Below, in pieces: positions 38,234 to 49,027 of a stretch of 49,027 nucleotides of DNA. The DNA lies in assembly GCA_005882975.1 (NCBI GenBank), contig VBAS01000086.1, forward strand, positions 1 to 49,027, written 5' to 3'. The notes beneath the pieces are model-generated. The model had not been told where the DNA came from, ran no database searches, and saw nothing but the letters and a program-made list of their open reading frames with translations. The DNA comes from Bacteroidota bacterium (GTDB lineage Bacteria; Bacteroidota; Bacteroidia; Chitinophagales; Chitinophagaceae). The position numbers were made by a program, and so were the translations under genes. Within the stretch, counting starts at the first letter, position 1, and each line of letters starts with the position of its first letter.

Positions 38234-38893
38234 ATGGCCCATCATCCTCATGCTTTCTTGCCGGGGGCTTCTAAACGACTCGAGGCCTTATCTGACGGAG
38301 TATTTGCAATTGCCTGTACGTTGCTTGTACTTGAAATTCATATCCCTCATTTTAAACAAGGTCTTAGTATAGCAGAGCAATGGCATGAATTCAGTGAATT
38401 GTTTCCTTCATTGATCGCTTTTGGTTTTAGTTTTTTAAATATTCTTGTTTTCTGGACCAATCATGATGCCATTAATAAAGTGATCATTCGATATGATACA
38501 AAAACGACCTACTTCAATATCTTTTTTCTTTTGTTTATCAGCCTTATTCCATTTACCACTGCATTTATAGGACAGAATCCCCATTCATTTATTGCCATTG
38601 CTGCATATGGGTTGGTGCTAATGTTTGCATCTTTAACAGCAATCCTGATGTATCATCATCTTGCATTTAGGTCAAAACTTTTTTTACCTGAGCTATCTGC
38701 AATATCAAAGAAGCGGGTTTACAAACAGATCGTTTCAAGTCCCTTTTTATATGTAGCTGCTATTGCGGGTGGCCTCATCTCCACTTATATTCCCATAACT
38801 ATCTATATAATTATGCCAATCATCTTTATGTTCATGCCACAACTTGATTTTGACACTAAAGAAGAAGAATTAGAAAAAGAGCACACCGAATAA
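38234..38893 (+). CDS. TMEM175-family (DUF1211) putative potassium channel
   Basis: Signature TM1 RLEALSDGVFAIACTLLVLEI and 6 TM helices. Confidence 0.8.
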   Translation: MAHHPHAFLPGASKRLEALSDGVFAIACTLLVLEIHIPHFKQGLSIAEQWHEFSELFPSLIAFGFSFLNILVFWTNHDAINKVIIRYDTKTTYFNIFFLLFISLIPFTTAFIGQNPHSFIAIAAYGLVLMFASLTAILMYHHLAFRSKLFLPELSAISKKRVYKQIVSSPFLYVAAIAGGLISTYIPITIYIIMPIIFMFMPQLDFDTKEEELEKEHTE

Positions 38894-40534
38894 TTATTCC
38901 CAAACAACAACACCTGGCTTATCATACCATGCGGGGTATTTGGGTAAATGATTTTTTTCGATCTCATTTCTTTTTACTTTCAAAGAAGGGGTGATCATGT
39001 TATTGGCGATCGTCCACGTTTCTTTCATGATCACTACCTTTTCTATTTTTTCAAATTTTTCCAAAGAAGGATTTAATAAATTCAAACTTTCAGTAAGATC
39101 TTTTATCAATTCATCTTTTGTTTTCTTTTTTCCGGAGTCAGAACGACAAATGAGAGCCATTGGTTGTGGCACTCCTGTACCAACAATACAAGCATGCTCA
39201 ATATCAGTATTAGAAAGCAGTTTCACTTCAATTGGCGCAGGAGATATATATTTTCCTTTATCGGTTTTAAACTGATCTTTTACACGGCCTGTTATTTTCA
39301 AGAAACCTTCACTGTCATACTCGCCCATATCACCGGTCTTTAAAAAATTGTCTTCGTCAAAAGTATCTGCTGTCATTTGCGGTTCTTTATAATAACCTTT
39401 CATATTTCCTTCACTCTTTATCCGGATCTCACCGTCATCTGCGATCTTAACTTGTACTCCCGGCAGAGCTTTTCCTACAGTTCCAAACTTATGAGCTTTA
39501 GGGCCGCAGAAATGCGAATACACACAATCTTCTGTCATACCATACGCCTGGTAAATTGTTATCCCGATCTTTTGATACCATTGTTGTAATTCGATTGATA
39601 TTGGTGCCGCTGCGCTGTAAAAATGTGAGGTCCTTGCAAAACCCATTTTTCTCTTTATGCTTTTTTTGAAAAACGAATTAACAACAGGAATTAAAAGAAT
39701 GAGATCAAGCTTACGTTGAGATAGTTTTGATAAAATTCCTTCTCTCATTTTTTGCCAGATACGCGGCACTGCAAAAAATAGTTGTGGTTGTATCTCTAAA
39801 AGATTTTTTGAAAAACTTTCCAGTGATTCAGCAAATGAAATTGTACCACCAGTAAACAATGCATTCATCTCCACTCCTACTTTTTCTGCAATATGGCTTA
39901 ATGGCAAATAAGAGATCAATTCAGGATGCATTGGTAACTCCAATGCCGGAATGGCCCCTGTAAGAACTGCACCAAAAGTACCAGCAGCATGCATTACTCC
40001 TTTACTCTTTCCCGTTGTTCCGGATGTATAAATAATAGTGAGTACTTTTTCTTTCGGCCAGGAATAAATATTATTCAATGGTTCGTTTCCGGCGATCAAC
40101 TCTTCGATGGAATATTTTTCTTTTATGCCATAAGCAGTAACACTAATTCGGATCATAGTTTCAGGAATTCCATTTGACTGCGATCCGAAGTCTTCCAATT
40201 TACCAATGACAATTGCCTTTGCCTCGCTATGAATTAAGATCGGCTCAATAGCAGCGGCAGATAATGTTGGATAAATTGGAATGGAAATACAACCAGCCAT
40301 CATGATGGCCATATCAGCGATGATCCATTCAGCACAGTTTTTTGAAAGTATTGCAATATGATTTCCTCCTTTCAACCCTAATGAATAAAAACCTTGTGCA
40401 ATTCTTCTTGCTTCATTGCCAGCCTGTGCCCATGTCAATGTTTTCCAAACTCCATTGATCGGCTGACGAAGAAATATCCTGTCCGGGTTTTCTTTTTCCC
40501 ATTTTAAAAATTGTTCCAATGGTGTTAATGGCAT
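38894..40534 (-). CDS. long-chain-fatty-acid--CoA ligase (AMP-binding enzyme)
   Basis: AMP-binding motif IIYTSGTTGKSKGV, YGMTE, and GDMGEYDSEGFLKITGRVKD. Confidence 0.88.
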   Translation of the reverse strand: MPLTPLEQFLKWEKENPDRIFLRQPINGVWKTLTWAQAGNEARRIAQGFYSLGLKGGNHIAILSKNCAEWIIADMAIMMAGCISIPIYPTLSAAAIEPILIHSEAKAIVIGKLEDFGSQSNGIPETMIRISVTAYGIKEKYSIEELIAGNEPLNNIYSWPKEKVLTIIYTSGTTGKSKGVMHAAGTFGAVLTGAIPALELPMHPELISYLPLSHIAEKVGVEMNALFTGGTISFAESLESFSKNLLEIQPQLFFAVPRIWQKMREGILSKLSQRKLDLILLIPVVNSFFKKSIKRKMGFARTSHFYSAAAPISIELQQWYQKIGITIYQAYGMTEDCVYSHFCGPKAHKFGTVGKALPGVQVKIADDGEIRIKSEGNMKGYYKEPQMTADTFDEDNFLKTGDMGEYDSEGFLKITGRVKDQFKTDKGKYISPAPIEVKLLSNTDIEHACIVGTGVPQPMALICRSDSGKKKTKDELIKDLTESLNLLNPSLEKFEKIEKVVIMKETWTIANNMITPSLKVKRNEIEKNHLPKYPAWYDKPGVVVWE

Positions 40535-40674: not shown

Positions 40675-42555
40675 ATGAAACGTTTCGTTATTACTTTACT
40701 CATCCTTTGCTACTCGCTACTTACAATTTCGCAGCAAACACAAAAACCGCCATTGCATGGAAAGAATTGGATGGCGATCACCGGTAAGCCATTAGCTGCA
40801 ACGGCAGGAGCTATCACTTTTCAAAAAGGCGGGAATGCAGTTGATGCAGCTTGTTCAATGCTTGCTGCAACATGCACCATGTGGGATGTATTGAGTTGGG
40901 GCGGAGAAACGCAGGCACTCATATATAATCCGAAAACAAAAAAAGTAATTGCAATAAATGCTTTGGGTGTGGCACCCACAGGGGCAACTGTTGATTTTTA
41001 TAAAAGTAAAGGATACGATTTTCCTCCTGAGTACGGACCATTAGCTGCTGTTACTCCCGGTACAGTTGGCGGCTTGTGTTATATGCTTGCCAATTATGGA
41101 ACGATGAGTTTGAAAGATGTTTTGAAACCGGCAATGGATCTTGCAGCGGGGTATCCGATAGATGCACAAACTGCCAACTCAATGGAATCAAAAAGAAATA
41201 AAGAATGGATAATGCAATGGCCATACAGTAAAGCTGTTTTTTATCCGCATCTCGGAGAAAAAAGAGAAGCACCGGAAGCAGGAGAAATTTTTGTACAAAA
41301 AGACCTGTTGGCAACATTGAGTAAAATGATAGAAGCAGAACAAAATGCATTGAAACAAAAAAAGTCACGCAAAGATGCGATCATGGTTGCTTATGATCGT
41401 TTTTATAAAGGTGATATAGCAAAAGAATTTGTACGGGGTTGCCAGGAACAAGGAGGATTGATAACGATGCAAGACCTTGCAAAATGGAAACCTATTGAAG
41501 AAGAACCAATGCATGTAAATTATAAAGGCATCGATGTATATAAACTACAGCAATGGACGCAGGGACCTATGTTATTGCAATCCTTGAACATTCTTGAAAA
41601 TTTTGATCTGAAAGCAATGGGCTACAACAGTCCCAAATATATTCATACGATCTATCAAACAATGAATCTCACTTTTGCTGATCGTGATTTTTATTATGGT
41701 GATCCTTATTTCGCACCCGAAGAACCGATGAAAGGCTTACTAAGTAAAGAATATGCAAAGCAAAGAGCGGCACAGATCAAATGGGATATGAATGATCCGA
41801 ACATAGGTCCTGGCGATCCCTATCCTTTTGAAGGAAAAACAAATCCCTGGCTCGATCTTTTGAAAAAAAGACAATCATCTGCGGAAGGCGATAAAAGTTT
41901 TATTCCCCCGCATGAGTCTCTTGCCTACAATGACATTGAATATATGGATCGCTTATTAAGAGGAACAACTTCTGTAGAAGCGGCTGACAAAGATGGCTGG
42001 GTTGTATCAATCACTCCAAGCGGAGGTTGGTTGCCGGCTTGTATTGCAGGTCACACAGGTGTGGGCATGAGTCAGCGATTTCAAAGTTTTGTTTTAGATA
42101 AAAATATAAACCCTTTCAATGTTGTTGAGCCAGGCAAAAGACCAAGAGTAACATTGACTCCCACCTTAGCAATGAAAGATGGCAAGCCCTTTATGAGCTG
42201 GGCCGTGCAAGGTGGCGATACACAGGATCAGAATCTTTTGCAATGCTTTTTAAATGTTGTTGAGTTTGGAATGACCATTCAACAAGCAGTAGAAGCAGCT
42301 AATATCAACACAAATCAATTGTGGTTATCATTAGGTGGAACAAAAACAGAAGACCGTAAACCACATCCTGGTGAAATATTAGTAAGCGATACAACTCCTG
42401 AAGCCATACAAAATGAATTAAAAAAAATGGGCTATAAAGTAACCACAGGCAAACGTACCAGCGGCCCCATCAACGCAATTTATTTTGACTGGAAGCATGG
42501 AAGCTTTTGGGGCGGTTCATCTAATAATGGAGAAGACTATGGAATTGGGTGGTGA
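40675..42555 (+). CDS. ggt: gamma-glutamyltransferase family protein, secreted
   Basis: Signal peptide. Autoprocessing/nucleophile context RGTTSVEAADKDGWVVSITPSGG. Confidence 0.85.
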   Translation: MKRFVITLLILCYSLLTISQQTQKPPLHGKNWMAITGKPLAATAGAITFQKGGNAVDAACSMLAATCTMWDVLSWGGETQALIYNPKTKKVIAINALGVAPTGATVDFYKSKGYDFPPEYGPLAAVTPGTVGGLCYMLANYGTMSLKDVLKPAMDLAAGYPIDAQTANSMESKRNKEWIMQWPYSKAVFYPHLGEKREAPEAGEIFVQKDLLATLSKMIEAEQNALKQKKSRKDAIMVAYDRFYKGDIAKEFVRGCQEQGGLITMQDLAKWKPIEEEPMHVNYKGIDVYKLQQWTQGPMLLQSLNILENFDLKAMGYNSPKYIHTIYQTMNLTFADRDFYYGDPYFAPEEPMKGLLSKEYAKQRAAQIKWDMNDPNIGPGDPYPFEGKTNPWLDLLKKRQSSAEGDKSFIPPHESLAYNDIEYMDRLLRGTTSVEAADKDGWVVSITPSGGWLPACIAGHTGVGMSQRFQSFVLDKNINPFNVVEPGKRPRVTLTPTLAMKDGKPFMSWAVQGGDTQDQNLLQCFLNVVEFGMTIQQAVEAANINTNQLWLSLGGTKTEDRKPHPGEILVSDTTPEAIQNELKKMGYKVTTGKRTSGPINAIYFDWKHGSFWGGSSNNGEDYGIGW

Positions 42556-42641
42556 ACTAAACCCCTATCCCCTAGGGGACAACAGGTATGAAATTTGAAT
42601 CATTTTTAAAAATGAATAATTTCAGATTAAAAATTAGTGCT

Positions 42642-43142
42642 ATGAAACTAATAAAAAACAAACAGGTTATACTATCGACGGGTTGCTTTCTAATGTTAGT
42701 TTTTCTTATTGCCAGTTCATTTGTAAAGCAGCCTTACTCTTCTTTTATCCAAAACGAAATAGAACAGGCGATCAATAATGACAGGTGGGATTTTACGGCT
42801 GACTATGCTCAACCAATATCCGGACAAAGAAGATACATCACCGGCAGCTATTATGTTTATTGCCGCAAGGATACATTAATTGTTGTACTGCCCTACTATG
42901 GCAGGCTTAATTCTGCTGCCGGGGCCAGCACCCAGGATCCGCTGGATTTTAAATCCACAGATTTCAAACTAACTAAAGAAAAAAGAAAAAAAGGCGGCTG
43001 GCATGTAACTATCAAACCATCCAATTCAGAAGTTCAATCCATGAACTTTACTTTTTTTGATAACGGTTCCGCACAGGCAAACTTTATAATGACGAATCGC
43101 AGTGCTATCGATTTTTCCGGAAAGATAGCGCCGGCTAAATGA
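42642..43142 (+). CDS. DUF4251-like secreted protein
   Basis: Hydrophobic N-terminus from ATG 42642. F.ADYAQP...LPYYGR...F.S.DF...K.KKGGW.V.I... pattern recalled for DUF4251 (from memory, unverified). Confidence 0.5.
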   Translation: MKLIKNKQVILSTGCFLMLVFLIASSFVKQPYSSFIQNEIEQAINNDRWDFTADYAQPISGQRRYITGSYYVYCRKDTLIVVLPYYGRLNSAAGASTQDPLDFKSTDFKLTKEKRKKGGWHVTIKPSNSEVQSMNFTFFDNGSAQANFIMTNRSAIDFSGKIAPAK

Positions 43143-43194: not shown

Positions 43195-43773
43195 ATGACC
43201 AAAACCCGTCTCGAAGCTTTCAGTGATGCAGTCATTGCAATTATTATCACTATCATGGTGCTGGAATTAAAAGTACCGCATGATACTAGCTTTGGAAGCT
43301 TGATGAACTTGTGGCCTGTATTTCTGAGTTACGCCTTAAGTTTTCTCATTTTAGGTATTTATTGGGGCAATCATCATCATCTTGTTCATACCATCAGGGA
43401 AGTAAGAGGTGGTATCTTATGGGCAAATCTTCATTTACTCTTTTGGCTATCACTTATTCCTTTTGCCACGGAATGGATGGGCGAAAATCATTTTGCCAAT
43501 AATACGGTAGCTGCTTATGCACTACTGGCTGATCTTTGTGGTATCGCTTATTATATCTTATTAATGGTAATCAAAGATTGTAATCGTGATAACACTGCAT
43601 TGCTTGAAGTGCTGAAGAAACAATCAAAAAAAGGAACATTATCCTGCATACTTTATACAGCTGCTATTGGTTTATCATTTATCAGCTCATTGCTTGGCGG
43701 AATTCTTATTTTCCTTGTTGGCATCATGTGGCTGATGCCCGATAGGAATATTGAAAGATCTTTGAAAGAATAA
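43195..43773 (+). CDS. TMEM175-family (DUF1211) putative potassium channel, second paralog
   Basis: TRLEAFSDAVIAIIITIMVLEL signature and 6 TM helices. Confidence 0.8.
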   Translation: MTKTRLEAFSDAVIAIIITIMVLELKVPHDTSFGSLMNLWPVFLSYALSFLILGIYWGNHHHLVHTIREVRGGILWANLHLLFWLSLIPFATEWMGENHFANNTVAAYALLADLCGIAYYILLMVIKDCNRDNTALLEVLKKQSKKGTLSCILYTAAIGLSFISSLLGGILIFLVGIMWLMPDRNIERSLKE

Positions 43774-43781
43774 GCCTTTTA

Positions 43782-45848
43782 TTACTGGAGACCTTTTACA
43801 TAATTATATATAGCTTCCTGTGAAGCATGCGGATCATCATTTACAGCAGGTATCCTTTCATTGGACAGATCTGCTCTAACCAATACTGCTTTTTTTGTAT
43901 CGGTTAATTGCAATTGCAGAATATCATTGATCTCTTTTTTTAATTTTTCATCATAGATAGGGAATATCACTTCTATCCGGCTATGAAGATTACGGCTCAT
44001 CCAATCAGCGCTGCCCATATAAAATTCCGGGTCGCCATTATTATAAAACGTAAATATTCTTGCATGTTCCAGATAACGGTCAACGATCCTGCGGATAGTT
44101 ATATTCTCACTTTGCCCTTCAATACCCGGTGCCACACAACAAATACTTCGAATGATCAGATCCACTTTTACGCCGGCATTGCTTGCTTCATATAATTTTT
44201 CGATCATTTCCCTTTCCTGCAGGTTATTTACTTTAATAATGATATGCGCCGGCAAACCGGCATTTGCATGCCCGATCTCTCGATCGATCATTTTACTAAA
44301 CCGTTTCACCATGTTGAACTGCGAGACCAGTAAATGCTTAAGTTTTAATTTTTCAACTTCTTCAGGCTGTAATCCTGATTGCAGGTATAAAAACAATTGT
44401 TGCAATTCATCACTGAACTCTTTTGCCGAAGTAAAAAAAACATGATCTGTATAAAACCGACCGGTTGTTTCATTAAAATTACCTGTAGCGAGTAAAGAGT
44501 AATTATTCATTTTACCTTCTTCATATCTTTTTACCAGCGCAATTTTTGCATGGACTTTCAAGCCCGGGATGCTATTAATGATCTTCACTCCCGCACTTTT
44601 CATTTTCTTTGACCATTTTAAATTATTGGCTTCGTCAAATCTTGCTTTCAACTCCACGAACACAGTTACTTTCTTTCCATTCTTCGCAGCGCTGATCAAT
44701 GCATTTACAATATGTGAATTGGCGGCCACGCGGTAAAGCGTTACATAGATCTCTTTTACCTGCGGGTCAATAGCGGCTTCATTAAAAAAACGAAGAATAT
44801 AATTGTAAGAATGATAAGGCAAATGCAGCAACAGTTCGTTTTCTGCTATTGTTTTAAAAATAGAACGATGCGTATTAAAACCGGGATGGGGAACTGATGG
44901 CCATGAATCGTATGTTAATTTTTTACCTGTCGGGTTCATCAGGCCACCCATATCTTTCAAATTATGATAACGGCCGCCCTCTACCATTTCTTCCTCTCTT
45001 ATATCAAAATATTGTTTTACAAACTTTCTTATTTCCTCCGGCATGCTATTTTCAAATAAAAATCTTGTAGCGGAACCAACATCTCTTTTGGCCAACTGCC
45101 TTTCGATCTTTTCAGCAAGATCACCAGTGAATTCATCTTCAATATTCAATTCGGCATCACGGGTAAGTTTTACACTGTAGGCACCATGAACTTTATAGCT
45201 GGGGAACACTTCCGCAAGATTCTCACGGATAACATCATCAAGAAAAAGCAAATAATATTTATCATCGATCTTTGGCAATTCAGAAAAACGCGGCAATTGA
45301 TCGGAGGGAATATTCAACAATGCATATTCATGAACACCCGGAACATCCGTATCCTCGATATCAACAATAAAATATAAGTAGTTGTTTTCAAGAAAAATAT
45401 TCCCCTTGTTTTCCTGCGTAAGGATCACCGGTTGCAGAAATGATAATACTCTTGATAAGAAAAAGTCCAGTACAGTATCCCTGTGCTCGTCTCTTATATT
45501 GTCACCATAATAAAGATGAATATTATTTTCTTCGAGAGAAGGTAAAATTTGTTTTGTAAATATTCTTCCAAAATCTACCAGGTGTCCCTGCACATAATCG
45601 ATCACAGTTTGAGAAAGATTTTCCGGATATTCTTCACGCAAAGTAGTTTTTTTTGCATTGATACTGGTGAATGCATAAATAGACGGCATGCGAACTCTGA
45701 AGAACTCATCAAGATTGGATGAGAAAATGGAAAGGAATTGAATTCGGCTGTACAGCGGCACCGATTCATCAGCCGCTTCCAGCAACACACGATGATTAAA
45801 ACTCAGCCAGCTCAGATCCCTGTTTATAAAAGTATACTCTTTAGCCAT
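43782..45848 (-). CDS. ppk1: polyphosphate kinase 1
   Basis: FINRDLSWLSFNHRVLLEA at the N-terminus. Phospho-histidine context LKVHAKIALV. Two PLD-like C-terminal domains. Confidence 0.95.
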   Translation of the reverse strand: MAKEYTFINRDLSWLSFNHRVLLEAADESVPLYSRIQFLSIFSSNLDEFFRVRMPSIYAFTSINAKKTTLREEYPENLSQTVIDYVQGHLVDFGRIFTKQILPSLEENNIHLYYGDNIRDEHRDTVLDFFLSRVLSFLQPVILTQENKGNIFLENNYLYFIVDIEDTDVPGVHEYALLNIPSDQLPRFSELPKIDDKYYLLFLDDVIRENLAEVFPSYKVHGAYSVKLTRDAELNIEDEFTGDLAEKIERQLAKRDVGSATRFLFENSMPEEIRKFVKQYFDIREEEMVEGGRYHNLKDMGGLMNPTGKKLTYDSWPSVPHPGFNTHRSIFKTIAENELLLHLPYHSYNYILRFFNEAAIDPQVKEIYVTLYRVAANSHIVNALISAAKNGKKVTVFVELKARFDEANNLKWSKKMKSAGVKIINSIPGLKVHAKIALVKRYEEGKMNNYSLLATGNFNETTGRFYTDHVFFTSAKEFSDELQQLFLYLQSGLQPEEVEKLKLKHLLVSQFNMVKRFSKMIDREIGHANAGLPAHIIIKVNNLQEREMIEKLYEASNAGVKVDLIIRSICCVAPGIEGQSENITIRRIVDRYLEHARIFTFYNNGDPEFYMGSADWMSRNLHSRIEVIFPIYDEKLKKEINDILQLQLTDTKKAVLVRADLSNERIPAVNDDPHASQEAIYNYVKGLQ

Positions 45849-46063
45849 TCGGTCAATTATGCTCTCTAAGATAGGGGATAATTGCTTACAGGCATTACTG
45901 TAAAGCAGTTCGGATATTTTATTAATAATGCCTTATATTATTAAAATAGGGTCTTGTACCCTACTTTTGACCACTAACTTTTCCTCCAATAATGTTTCAG
46001 AGATCTTTTCACCAGACCTACGTTAAATTTTTACAATCACTATAAAAAGATATCAAAGAAAAT

Positions 46064-46822
46064 ATGGAAGTACATCATCATCCCAAAGTAGAAAAGAAAA
46101 ATTTCAAGCAATACTTTTTAGAGTTCTTAATGATATTTCTGGCTGTAACACTTGGGTTTTTTGCTGAGAATATCCGGGAATATATATCTGATCATCACAA
46201 AGCCAACACGTTTGCAGCTTCTATGAAAGAAGACCTGAAAGCAGATATGGCGCAGCTCAATAACTACAATAAATATTTTAAAGCTGCGGCAAACAACATA
46301 GACACGTTTATGGTGTTGTTGCAAAACAATGATCCGCAAAATATTCCCTCCGGCAAATTATACTGGTACGGACTGTATGGTGGAGCACTTGGTAGTTTTA
46401 TATCAAATGATGCAACCTTTCAGCAAATGAAAAGTTCAGGTTCGCTGGGATTGTTTAAATCCAAAACAACTATCGATATAGAAAAGTATGACAGGTTTTG
46501 TCGCTTATTGGAAGACAGCAATGATATGAGCAAAGATATTTATACAGAAGTGCGAAAAGCAAGGGCAATGATATTTGATTTTAAGTATAATGAAATGGCA
46601 AACCAAATAACACAGGCAAACAGGATCGCATTTAGCCAGGCAAGGATCGATTCATTTATAGCAAGTGATCCGCCATTATTAAGTCACGATAAGGTATTAT
46701 TCAATCAATATGTGGAATTAGTGCGTTCACGGTTCATCCGTTTATTCAATGTTGCTTATTCAGATTCTTTATTAAAGCAGGCAAATATTGTACTTGGCGA
46801 TTTGAATAAAGACTATCAGTAA
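46064..46822 (+). CDS. single-pass membrane protein, MEVHHH-leader family member 1
   Basis: MEVHHHPKVEKKNFKQYFLEFLMIFLAVTLGFFAEN, then a helical domain of about 210 aa. Full-length (weak) homology to the next gene. Confidence 0.7.
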   Translation: MEVHHHPKVEKKNFKQYFLEFLMIFLAVTLGFFAENIREYISDHHKANTFAASMKEDLKADMAQLNNYNKYFKAAANNIDTFMVLLQNNDPQNIPSGKLYWYGLYGGALGSFISNDATFQQMKSSGSLGLFKSKTTIDIEKYDRFCRLLEDSNDMSKDIYTEVRKARAMIFDFKYNEMANQITQANRIAFSQARIDSFIASDPPLLSHDKVLFNQYVELVRSRFIRLFNVAYSDSLLKQANIVLGDLNKDYQ

Positions 46823-46876
46823 TACACGATCTGTATATAACGGCAAATTAAAACTCAAAAAATTTAAACTGGAGAA

Positions 46877-47620
46877 ATGGAAGTACATCATCATCCCAAA
46901 GTAGAAAAAAAGAATTTCAAAGAATACTTTCTGGAGTTCTTAATGATATTTCTCGCAGTAACACTTGGATTTTTTGCAGAAAATTTCAGAGAACACCAAG
47001 TTGAAAACGATCGTGAATTAGAATACATAAAGTCGTTAACGGCAGACTTGAATGATGATATACACAACCTGGATAGCCTGATTGCTTTTGAACAGCCAGG
47101 TATCAAACAATTAGATACGCTGATAGATCTATTGGAGGACCCGGCACTTGCAAAACAAAACGGGGATGAAATATATTATGTAGCAAGACAAGGTCCACGA
47201 GAATATCCATTTCCTGTCAACAGCCGAACATTGGACCAGCTAAAAAGTTCTGGTGGTTTTTTGTTAATAAGAAACGTGGAGGCTTCAAACCAGGTGATAA
47301 ATTATTACAACCAATATTCGCCGGCAAAACTGCTGGAAAATAATTATAGCCTTGAGTTTGATAGTTACAAACGTGTGGCTGCAAAAATTTTCGATCCGGG
47401 TATATTAAGACGACAGGAAAATAATGCAAGTGAAATTATCCGGAGCCATTACAATCCTTCACTTCTAAGTTATGATGCAAATCTATTAAAGGAGCTAGGA
47501 TTTCATGTACTGCAAATGAGCGGTTCACGACGTTCCAGATTAGGTGTGTTGCAGGCACAAAGCACCAAAGCCCTTCAGCTAAAATCATATTTGCAAGAAG
47601 AATATCATTTGGAAAAATGA
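46877..47620 (+). CDS. single-pass membrane protein, MEVHHH-leader family member 2
   Basis: First 39 aa are 37/39 identical to 46064..46822. The remainder is only weakly similar. Confidence 0.7.
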   Translation: MEVHHHPKVEKKNFKEYFLEFLMIFLAVTLGFFAENFREHQVENDRELEYIKSLTADLNDDIHNLDSLIAFEQPGIKQLDTLIDLLEDPALAKQNGDEIYYVARQGPREYPFPVNSRTLDQLKSSGGFLLIRNVEASNQVINYYNQYSPAKLLENNYSLEFDSYKRVAAKIFDPGILRRQENNASEIIRSHYNPSLLSYDANLLKELGFHVLQMSGSRRSRLGVLQAQSTKALQLKSYLQEEYHLEK

Positions 47621-47664
47621 TTGAAGAAGAAAATAATACTACTGGTAATAAACAAACCAAAACA

Positions 47665-48162
47665 ATGGAAGTACATCAGCCTATTATAGAAAATAAAAAA
47701 ATCACAATATTTAGGAAAGAGCTTTTTATTTCTTTGTTCATGTTATTTTTTCAACAGGCTATTTCGCAAAGCCCGCATAGTAACGATATTGCAATGATCA
47801 AATCTAACAGGGCAGCATCAAACGATGCTATTACAAGGCACGATGTTGATGGTATAGCCAAATTCTGGCTGGATGATTTTGTTCAGGTTATTGGTCGTGG
47901 TATTTACCAAACCGGCAAGGACAGCATTGTAGCTTCGTGGAAAGCCTTATTCAATAGTAATTCGCAAATCGCTTATACCAGGAATCCGGAAGAAATTATT
48001 ATCAGCGATAATGATACTCTCGCATGGGAACGTGGGGAATGGATCGGTATTCATTCTTACAGCAAAGGCGGTAATTATGCCGCGATGTGGATCAAACGAA
48101 ATCATAACTGGATGCTGAAAGCAGAGTTGTTTGTATCGTTAAAAGCCAATGATCAGCAGTAA
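47665..48162 (+). CDS. secreted SnoaL/DUF4440-like (NTF2-fold) protein with decayed MEVH leader
   Basis: ATGGAAGTACATCA start at 47665; the track ORF starts at 47617 within an ATGA overlap. Signal peptide LFISLFMLFFQQAISQ. NTF2-like pattern ...HDVDGIAKFWLDDFVQV...LAWERGEW...AMWIKRNHNWML. Confidence 0.6.
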   Translation: MEVHQPIIENKKITIFRKELFISLFMLFFQQAISQSPHSNDIAMIKSNRAASNDAITRHDVDGIAKFWLDDFVQVIGRGIYQTGKDSIVASWKALFNSNSQIAYTRNPEEIIISDNDTLAWERGEWIGIHSYSKGGNYAAMWIKRNHNWMLKAELFVSLKANDQQ

Positions 48163-48221
48163 TGAGATCACATTTTAACCACAAGAATAAATGAAATCTG
48201 AAAATTTACACCGCTGACAAA

Positions 48222-49027
48222 ATGGAAGTACATCATCACTCTAAAATAGAGAAGAAAAATTTCAAAGAAGAATTTTTGGAATTCTTAATGATATTTCTTG
48301 CAGTTTCACTAATCAGTTCTTGCAAAGTAAATAGATCTATCGATGTAAAATTATCTCATGTAAGTACTGACACAAAAGATCTTGGCGTTGTGCAATATTT
48401 AAACATTTCTAATGATACATTAAGTACTTCTGAAAAACAATTTGCGCAAAACTTAGGTGCAAGCGGTTTTAAAGCATTCTCTTTCCGGCATATTTACCCT
48501 AAAATGGATAATGATACGTTTGATTCAAAAACAACTTTTTTAATTGGAATGACCCAAGATAGTATCATGATAATTGCCGATGCCAATAATAATAACTCGT
48601 TTTATGATGATGATGTAATCAAAGTCACTAAAGAAATACTACTGTCCCGCTCTTTAAAAAATCTTGCTCAACTACCACTTGTTCATATTCAGAACTTACA
48701 GACCCTTTATGGGGATAAAAAATATTTGTTTTCAAGAAGCATTTATTTACTGCCCGACACGATCACTAGTGGACAATTAAGTCTTATCATAATCTCCAAT
48801 GAACAGGTAAAAGGGATGTTCAAATACAGAGGAAAACAGCATTTTGTAAGCGTAAGATTAAATTCACCTAAAAAAATTTTTGTTGACTCAACATCCCAAA
48901 TCAATATTAAAATTTCTGACTCAGAATTTTCTTCTACCGAATACAGAGAAAAAGAGATTATGCATTTGCTTGATACTGTTATTAAAGATCGAAGGGTTTT
49001 TACAGTTCAGTCCGTTTCTAAAGATTT
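48222..49027 (+). CDS. putative lipoprotein with MEVHHH leader, 3'-truncated by the window edge
   Basis: My own translation is open from ATG 48222 to the window end (MEVHHHSKIEKKNFKEEFLEFLMIFLAVSLISSCKVNRSIDVKL...). It is absent from the ORF track because no stop is reached. Lipobox-like SLISSC. Confidence 0.6.
   Translation, partial: MEVHHHSKIEKKNFKEEFLEFLMIFLAVSLISSCKVNRSIDVKLSHVSTDTKDLGVVQYLNISNDTLSTSEKQFAQNLGASGFKAFSFRHIYPKMDNDTFDSKTTFLIGMTQDSIMIIADANNNNSFYDDDVIKVTKEILLSRSLKNLAQLPLVHIQNLQTLYGDKKYLFSRSIYLLPDTITSGQLSLIIISNEQVKGMFKYRGKQHFVSVRLNSPKKIFVDSTSQINIKISDSEFSSTEYREKEIMHLLDTVIKDRRVFTVQSVSKD

Follow-up and report, generated by a model that had tools for sequence, protein, structure and literature searches.

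Introduction

How do four neighboring genes with different exported products come to share almost the same beginning? The question is raised by the right end of contig VBAS01000086.1, from a member of the Chitinophagaceae, which we analyzed over positions 1-49,027 (the whole stretch, hereafter the window). The array at 46064-49027 comprises four genes, here called g1 to g4, all on the + strand and separated by 54, 44, and 59 nucleotides (nt), and each opens with the codons of a MEVHHH-type leader. A sequence-only reading of this DNA had pointed out the common start and had taken it for a cassette-type leader, attached to unrelated exported domains. The common start itself is well founded, as the 14-mer ATGGAAGTACATCA occurs exactly four times in the 49-kb window, once at the start of each of g1-g4 and nowhere else, against an expectation of 0.04 from shuffled sequences (four copies were reached in 0/100 shuffles). 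The reading as a cassette leader is largely replaced by a more ordinary one: the leader forms the conserved start of the proteins of a DUF6090-related family that has expanded in tandem, here represented by g1 and g2, to which two local 5′-capture chimeras, g3 and g4, have been added.

Results

The leader belongs to one large unannotated family

The g1 and g2 leaders are identical at 37/39 residues and 103/117 nt (88%), within the 85-90% previously estimated by hand. The homology block begins at the ATG, since the 60 nt located 5′ of both genes are at background identity (28-40%), and past the leader the two genes share 23.5% of their amino acids (aa) and 40% of their nucleotides. Their ectodomains are still homologous (BLASTP E 6e-7, including the islands of similarity already named in the sequence-only reading), and both match the hidden Markov models (HMMs) of the family ectodomain, while g3 and g4 do not.

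A search with g1 in a collection of 5.8 billion proteins returned more than 4,859 homologs at E <= 1e-3, all of them labelled 'hypothetical', from Puia, Hanamia, Arachidicoccus, Parafilimonas, Ginsengibacter, and unclassified Chitinophagaceae. An exhaustive phmmer search with the 40-residue leader alone matched 1,512 clusters (50% identity), and a genome scan found at least 592 stretches that encode it, also in Mucilaginibacter and in a few metagenome-assembled genomes of Flavobacteriaceae and Cyclobacteriaceae. Culturable carriers include Ginsengibacter hankyongi BR5-29 (L033) and Arachidicoccus soli (P0045). Scans of the Pfam and NCBIfam libraries gave no match for g1, g2, or g4, and none of the g1-g4 proteins hit any family of PADLOC-DB (known anti-phage defence systems) at E <= 0.1. 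g1 and g2 are old paralogs within one large unannotated family of single-pass membrane proteins of ~250 aa.

In an alignment of 120 members of this family, two proteins share on average 88% of their leader residues but only 26% of those of the ectodomain. Thirty-one of the 39 leader positions are conserved at >=90% across genera (M1, E2, H6, K12, Y17, E20, M23, F25, A27, V28, G31, A34, R38, and E39 are invariant), and past the leader just D61 and G126 reach this level. What looked like a separate leader is therefore the usual N-terminus of a single well-populated family, an outcome which the sequence-only reading had set against its own proposal; yet the uniform divergence along the gene that went with that outcome is not what we find, divergence being far from uniform. 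Its proposal that a His/Lys-rich tail and anchor are held almost constant while the exported part varies holds for the family as a whole.

We defined the leader pattern as ME(V)HHHP-x3-5-KKxFKEYxLEFxMIFLAVTxGFxAExxRE, which is made up of a cytoplasmic tail (MEVHHHPxVEKKNFKEY), a transmembrane (TM) segment (FLEFLMIFLAVTLGFFA), and a juxtamembrane ExxRE. g1 and g2 fit it at every invariant position and also present the hallmarks of the family ectodomain (helical, D61, and an ..SG.. motif), whereas g4 fits the pattern for residues 1-28 only, with two changes at conserved positions. For annotation purposes MEVHHH marks the true start codon, and many database entries bear spurious N-terminal extensions. 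The TM segment is conserved on all faces, with the invariant E20 near its cytoplasmic end, an A27xxxG31xxA34 small-residue motif, and the ExxRE at the periplasmic exit.

Both g1 and g2 have only one hydrophobic segment, at residues 16-37. The AlphaFold2 (AF2) model of g1, built on the 120-sequence alignment, is all-alpha, with a mean predicted local distance difference test (pLDDT) score of 92, and consists of a continuous helix over residues 14-88 (TM plus periplasmic stalk) followed by a helical bundle. The structural check suggested by the sequence-only reading thus produced a confident model but no structural match: Foldseek searches of PDB and BFVD gave just generic long-helix matches (E >= 0.03, TM-score <= 0.31), so that the fold of g1 permits no functional inference, and a PDB sequence-profile search gave nothing below E 0.36. 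An N-in/C-out topology is probable, because of the charge distribution and because the chimeras place the leader before a lipobox (g4) or a signal-peptidase site (g3).

Genomic context was sampled in 80 loci of ~12.7 kb. The sequence-only reading had asked whether leader carriers cluster, and they do: two or more copies are present in 49/80 loci, with up to 12 in 12.7 kb, each leader open reading frame (ORF) lies on the strand of its seed gene, and spacers inside the arrays are often only 6-60 nt long. An integron-like cassette organization was considered and rejected, such spacers being too short for attC-like sites.

Leader-only stubs, with 20-80 codons of intact MEVHHH leader followed by a stop or a frameshift, are common in these arrays. 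Examples are found in the sampled loci at L007:4603-4683, L007:6322, L032:9968-10090, L035:4227-4412, L060:7520-7621, L091:4772-4984, L099:362 and 4316, and three times in L074. Recombination may have left them behind as pseudogenes, or they may come from frameshifts in the assembly; their frequency fits frequent recombination at the repeated 5′ blocks.

g3 and g4 carry captured leaders

The g4 gene shares 25/28 residues and 71/84 nt with the g2 leader and then continues into a lipobox (LISSC), in agreement with the lipoprotein-like character it had been given before. The lipobox I-S-S-C lies at residues 31-34, its cysteine (alignment position C44) is invariant in 13 orthologs, and by the pattern [LVI][ASTVI][GAS]C g4 is a predicted bacterial lipoprotein and signal peptidase II substrate. 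Twelve clusters of g4 orthologs (P0122-P0133), which are 70-79% identical to the window g4 and 72-76% to the leader-bearing P0121, lack the leader; they start with MIKLFYSFLLISLISSC and have an ordinary lipoprotein signal peptide (MIKLFYSFLLISLISSCKVNRSID). One of these leaderless orthologs (in L001) is found in an unrelated context, behind a TonB-dependent receptor gene, and nucleotide similarity between it and g4 is lost upstream of the SLISSC codons (~48303-48306). The leader version, MEVH..FLMIFLAV joined to SLISSC, was found only in the window and in the closely related contigs L002, L082, L083, and L094. These alignments show g4 as a recent chimera of one clade, in which the first 28 codons of a family gene replaced the n- and h-regions of a lipoprotein signal peptide.

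In both leader lineages of g4, positions conserved in the family have changed: the window copy has P7S and Y17E, and the L002 type has H5Q and L19P. The two lineages differ at 4/28 leader residues though the proteins are 96% identical overall, which suggests that the captured n-region is under relaxed constraint. The AF2 model of g4 (13 sequences) was too poor to use (pLDDT 44.6). One g4 ortholog of 429 aa (P0127) has a C-terminal thioredoxin-like domain (Pfam Redoxin / AhpC-TSA), a fusion that hints at a redox-related role for the g4 lipoprotein.

The assignment of g3 to an NTF2/SnoaL-like domain preceded by a decayed leader was correct: g3 matches Pfam DUF4440 (PF14534) over profile positions 1-107/107 with 33.8 bits (threshold 25.2; E 4.9e-8), and it retains just the 14-nt start and a decayed n-region of the leader. 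Whether this leader similarity is significant had been left as a doubt, and the answer is a divided one, since the window g3 leader by itself fails the leader HMM while the homology is established through orthologs that read MEVHHHPKVEKKNFKEY, followed by an h-region of their own (RKELFIFLFML..AFSQ). Of the closest 120 DUF4440 clusters, ~60 keep a recognizable MEVHHHP..KKNFKEY n-region, down to ~65% identity. A g3 subgroup of 149 aa begins directly at MKLLFIFLFM, and more distant homologs have short ordinary signal peptides, indicating that an ordinary signal peptide received the leader tail. The g3 leaders often vary at positions that are invariant in the family (E2K/Q/A; H to Y/R/Q/D/P; Y17F/S/C/H), and the window g3 is the most decayed copy, matching its orthologs at 5-7/17 leader residues with a mature domain that is 91% identical. 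The comparison shows g3 as an older chimera than g4, in which the first 17 codons of a family gene replaced the n-region of an ordinary Sec signal peptide.

In the window, an in-frame upstream ATG of g3 at 47617 overlaps the g2 stop codon (ATGA) and would add a 16-aa extension, MIEEENNTTGNKQTKT (47617-47664). This extension is kept in P0420, whose N-terminal region is identical to that of the window, and at 13/16 residues in P0406. Translation of g3 may thus be coupled to that of g2 in this lineage, MEVH then being internal. For g4, the internal Met22 is an alternative candidate start to 48222.

Is the leader, then, a portable targeting or regulatory module, a His/Lys-rich tail with its anchor that is attached to varied exported cargoes? 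The two unrelated cargoes of the window, the DUF4440 protein and the lipoprotein, do carry it, as the sequence-only reading had seen; MEVHHHPxxEKKNFKEY is still recognizable in about half of the nearest 120 DUF4440 clusters, with a perfect match to the consensus in L083 and P0386; and g3 is found in or beside family arrays in L086, L089, and L091 (in L091 inside an array of at least eight family genes, directly after a 71-codon leader stub). However, all of the full-length leader carriers among the best database matches (156/156) fall in one ectodomain superfamily with g1 and g2, g3 and g4 lying outside it; and of the 280 leader ORFs counted in the 80 loci (279-280), 265 have the family ectodomain as judged with a broad HMM and 12 are short stubs, the only foreign bodies behind the leader being of the g3 and g4 types. 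Neither is a constant module transferred, as g3 keeps the tail only and g4 the tail with part of the TM, and the g4 orthologs and distant g3 homologs do with ordinary signal peptides. Because changes accumulate at family-invariant positions, the captured leaders of g3 and g4 appear to serve only as generic export signals. We consider a portable module quite unlikely, and the idea that g3 and g4 are cassettes of the array with a shared module gives way to secondary chimeras whose captured leaders are decaying.

Selection and concerted evolution of the leader

The sequence-only reading had left open whether gene conversion or strong selection keeps the leader constant, and both operate, selection being dominant. 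We compared codon identity at sites with an identical residue, in the leader and in the ectodomain, between genomes and within a locus. In the leader, codons agree at 57% of these sites between genomes and at 63% within a locus, where 47% is expected from the per-residue rates of the ectodomain; the ectodomain itself gives 42-43% in both comparisons. The leader DNA thus diverges under an unchanged peptide, which indicates that the constancy of the leader is mainly due to purifying selection acting on the peptide. Synonymous sites are thus more conserved in the leader family-wide, but for the window pair that had called attention to it this does not stand out: 25/35 codons are identical between g1 and g2, which does not significantly exceed the level seen across the family (p = 0.06-0.2).

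The excess over expectation between genomes could also be read as a nucleotide-level element, the first ~50-120 nt, in place of the peptide, being kept as an mRNA feature (an enhancer of translation initiation in Shine-Dalgarno-less Bacteroidota, a riboregulator, or a small-RNA target). The exact start of the homology at the ATG would agree with this, as would codon 2, which is GAA in 98% of pairs, codons 16, 17, 32, and 33, identical in 82-89%, and an A-rich, weakly structured start region (minimum free energy -4 to -11 kcal/mol). The start regions have no Rfam match, however, their folding z-scores (-0.8 to +1.05) cannot be told from those of shuffles, and the synonymous sites of codons 7, 19, 27, 29, 31, 37, and 38 drift freely at 19-31% identity. 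Conservation is also far stronger at the protein level and reaches through the TM and juxtamembrane residues, so that we hold an mRNA element to be very unlikely. With a tool that does not cover Bacteroidota promoters, sigma-70 promoter-like sites were no commoner than in shuffles and no intergenic terminator was found.

To selection, a modest but significant contribution of within-genome concerted evolution (gene conversion) is added. Leaders of same-locus paralogs have a nucleotide identity of 0.82 with ectodomains below 30%, compared with 0.75 for cross-genome orthologs with ectodomains at 50-60%. Residue 8 is common to 48% of same-locus pairs vs. 26% in permutations, and the indel state to 73% vs. 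62% (both p < 5e-4). Orthogroups span many genomes with one member each, so the paralogs predate the species splits, which argues for concerted evolution and not for recent duplication. In the window, the g1 leader is nearer to the g2 leader (103/117) than to that of its own ortholog in L097 (101/117, with 362/400 in the gene body), and K8 is present in g1, g2, and g4 whereas both L097 genes and all L099 genes have H8.

A longer leader variant (+2 residues), HHHPDL(H/Q)HKKKNFKEY, is found in nearly every paralog of some genomes (L007, a Hanamia sp., L019, and L021), while in most genomes it is confined to one gene per array; these three loci are the clearest case of leader homogenization.

Pure gene conversion, by which tandem paralogs would homogenize their 5′ ends with no special selection on the peptide, would account for the closeness of same-locus leaders and for the lineage variants that paralogs share (PDLHHKK in 7/7 genes of L007, E8 in Mucilaginibacter loci, K8 in the window vs. 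H8 in L097 and L099), but it is hardly credible, given that leaders from different genera and families, between which no conversion can take place, are still 88% identical, that synonymous codon identity between genomes is only 57% with a within-genome excess of just 6 points, and that the g1/g2 codons are at the family background.

Strain variation and layout of the locus

The g1-g2 pair is a strain-level presence/absence polymorphism among close relatives. When window positions 45849-47664 are compared with L002, L082, L083, and L087 (contigs ~92% identical), the latter lack g1, g2, and 126 nt of the spacer between ppk and g1, and ppk has g3 as its direct neighbor in L082, L083, and L087. 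A simple leader-to-leader deletion was rejected as the cause of the absence in L002 and L082, as the 126 nt upstream of g1 are not there either. A conversion tract over the g3 signal peptide (L082 vs. L083) was likewise discarded, the drop in identity being too modest (87-90% vs. 97-100%). The features of the locus are collected in Table 1.

Table 1. Coordinates and features of the g1-g4 array and its left boundary in the window.
Feature	Position	Strand	Description	Basis
g1	46064..46822	+	252-aa member of the MEVHHHP-leader family; predicted type II single-pass membrane protein with an all-helical periplasmic domain	ORF, homologs, AF2 model
g1 leader	46064..46180	+	39 codons: cytoplasmic tail MEVHHHPKVEKKNFKQY, TM FLEFLMIFLAVTLGFFA, juxtamembrane ENIRE	alignments
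g2	46877..47620	+	247-aa divergent paralog of g1, different orthogroup	BLASTP, single-linkage superfamily
g2 leader	46877..46993	+	39 codons; 103/117 nt and 37/39 aa identical to g1 leader	
g3	47665..48162	+	165 aa; predicted exported DUF4440/SnoaL-like protein, chimeric signal peptide	Pfam, orthologs
g3 decayed captured leader n-region, MEVHQPIIENKKITIF	47665..47712	+		alignment with orthologs
g4	48222..49027	+	predicted lipoprotein, chimeric signal peptide; truncated by the window end	translation, orthologs
g4 captured leader	48222..48305	+	28 codons; fusion joint ~48303-48306 (..FLAV/SLISSC)	
ppk1 (polyphosphate kinase)	43782..45848	-	left boundary of the array, divergently oriented	Pfam PP_kinase domains

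Elsewhere in the window, two TMEM175-type potassium-channel paralogs are located at 38234-38893 and 43195-43773, less than 5 kb apart; between them lie the genes of an AMP-binding enzyme (38894-40534, - strand), a gamma-glutamyltranspeptidase (40675-42555), and a DUF4251 protein (42588-43142).

Discussion

Taken together, a family anchor, its arrays, and two captures make up an account of this locus that we regard as probable. Several points weigh against it. The inspection of leader carriers covered the best 150 of the 1,512 leader-matching clusters, and rarer fusions of the leader to other cargo could exist. The topology proposed for the family is drawn from the charge distribution and from how the chimeras use the leader. 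The within-genome excess of leader identity could partly reflect genome-specific codon usage, an effect which in the ectodomain amounts to just 1.3 points. The tail may retain some function on foreign cargo, as its n-region is kept in the ~60 DUF4440 clusters. As regards function, the neighbor genes on 58 upstream and 66 downstream flanks included no recurrent partner, no family being present in more than six loci (peptidases and histidine kinases are among the commonest, slightly frequent but inconsistent), and literature searches on DUF6090, PF19578, and MEVHHH found no papers in the library searched; a search on tandem transmembrane paralogs in Chitinophagaceae gave nothing relevant among the matches listed.

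The size, as clusters and as genomic stretches, and the array organization are notable for a family that is invisible to Pfam and NCBIfam and absent from the papers searched. Unusual, too, is the extreme, family-wide constraint on 39 residues of tail and TM: the most constrained part of these proteins is a 17-residue cytoplasmic tail with a TM helix, and not a globular domain. A constant anchor with a hypervariable ectodomain is a pattern typical of receptor or repertoire systems, and the leader peptide, E20, the AxxxG motif, and the His cluster offer a handle for a search of partners. The locus is also a clean natural example of concerted evolution limited to a short 5′ coding block, and of chimeric signal peptides formed by block capture, with ancestral, intermediate, and decaying states all to be found in metagenomes.

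What the leader might do can be proposed only tentatively. In the model we favor, it could be an N-in signal-anchor, docking, or oligomerization module common to all paralogs, its TM in contact with further copies of itself or with the helices of a partner that all share; conservation on all faces together with E20, AxxxGxxA, and ExxRE is what is expected of a helix packed in this way. The His cluster would be part of this module and might make it sensitive to metals or pH. Binding of ligands or partners would then fall to the diversifying periplasmic helical bundle, and the arrays would be a repertoire of binding specificities plugged into one membrane interface. We find this model possible, although doubtful.

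A more specific version, which we think unlikely, would make the 39-residue leader a common plug that docks all paralogs into one membrane machine or signaling hub, such as a 5:2-motor-like or protease complex, or would have intramembrane cleavage release an identical His-rich 17-mer. The arrays would in that case be a periplasmic sensor or binding repertoire converging on one output, with the g3-type tail hitch-hiking onto the hub. If true, this would be an undescribed system of many receptors and one transducer in soil Bacteroidota.

Among known systems, type IV pilins and class III signal peptides resemble the family superficially: a basic leader, a hydrophobic helix whose first residues include an invariant Glu (FLEFLMIFLAV vs. 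FTLIELMIVVAI), and a long N-terminal helix that leaves the membrane, as at residues 14-88 of the g1 model. The KEY/FLEF junction, however, lacks the Gly or Ala that a prepilin-peptidase site has at -1, Pfam gave no N_methyl match, and the globular part is a helical bundle and not an alpha-beta pilin fold.

ExbD, TolR, and MotB, whose TM has an Asp near the cytoplasmic end, are stator anchors of 5:2 ion-driven motors. As a functional analogy, the family shares with them a short cytoplasmic N-terminal tail, a single N-in TM with an acidic residue (E20), a periplasmic domain, and conservation of the TM on all faces, as for a helix enclosed by partner subunits. No ExbD/TolR/MotB-type Pfam match was obtained at E <= 1, though, and no MotA/ExbB/TolQ-type gene is among the 25 most frequent neighbor families on either side; the periplasmic domain of the family is all-helical and hypervariable whereas that of ExbD/TolR is conserved, and up to 12 copies occur per locus.

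The closest relative is DUF6090, itself an uncharacterized single-pass Bacteroidota family, which the sequence-only reading had offered as a lead. A relationship was found, though not membership. g1 and g2 have no match to Pfam DUF6090 (PF19578; gathering threshold 23.5 bits) even at E <= 1, and only 3/120 family relatives touch the model (best E 4.1e-5), while a control member of DUF6090, L044:9001-9666, scores 38.1 bits. Aligned with this member by hhalign, the family gives a probability of 98.2% (E 4.3e-14) over 153 columns (columns 7-162), which include the TM, the juxtamembrane N(W/I)RE, and an ND.T..(M/I)K.SG.L motif. The MEVHHHP family is thus a real but remote homolog, or sister, of DUF6090. 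Both have a short N-terminal tail, one TM, and ~200 helical residues in a total of ~230-270 aa (252 in g1 and 247 in g2); they differ in the invariant MEVHHHP..KKNFKEY tail and the FLEFLMIFLAV TM, specific to the MEVHHHP family. Bona fide DUF6090 genes lie beside MEVHHH arrays in a few genomes (L044:9001-9666 and two genes located upstream of arrays), so the two sister families can share loci.

For g3 and g4 the precedent is 5′-end capture, or signal-peptide swapping between neighboring genes, which is a general phenomenon. As in other such chimeras, the 5′ coding end of a neighboring family gene is fused in frame to a foreign mature domain, with joints inside T-rich codons of the hydrophobic segment, and the ancestral state is seen in leaderless orthologs. 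They differ in the donor, which here is a multi-copy, near-identical 117-nt block at the start of each array gene, offering many substrates for recombination.

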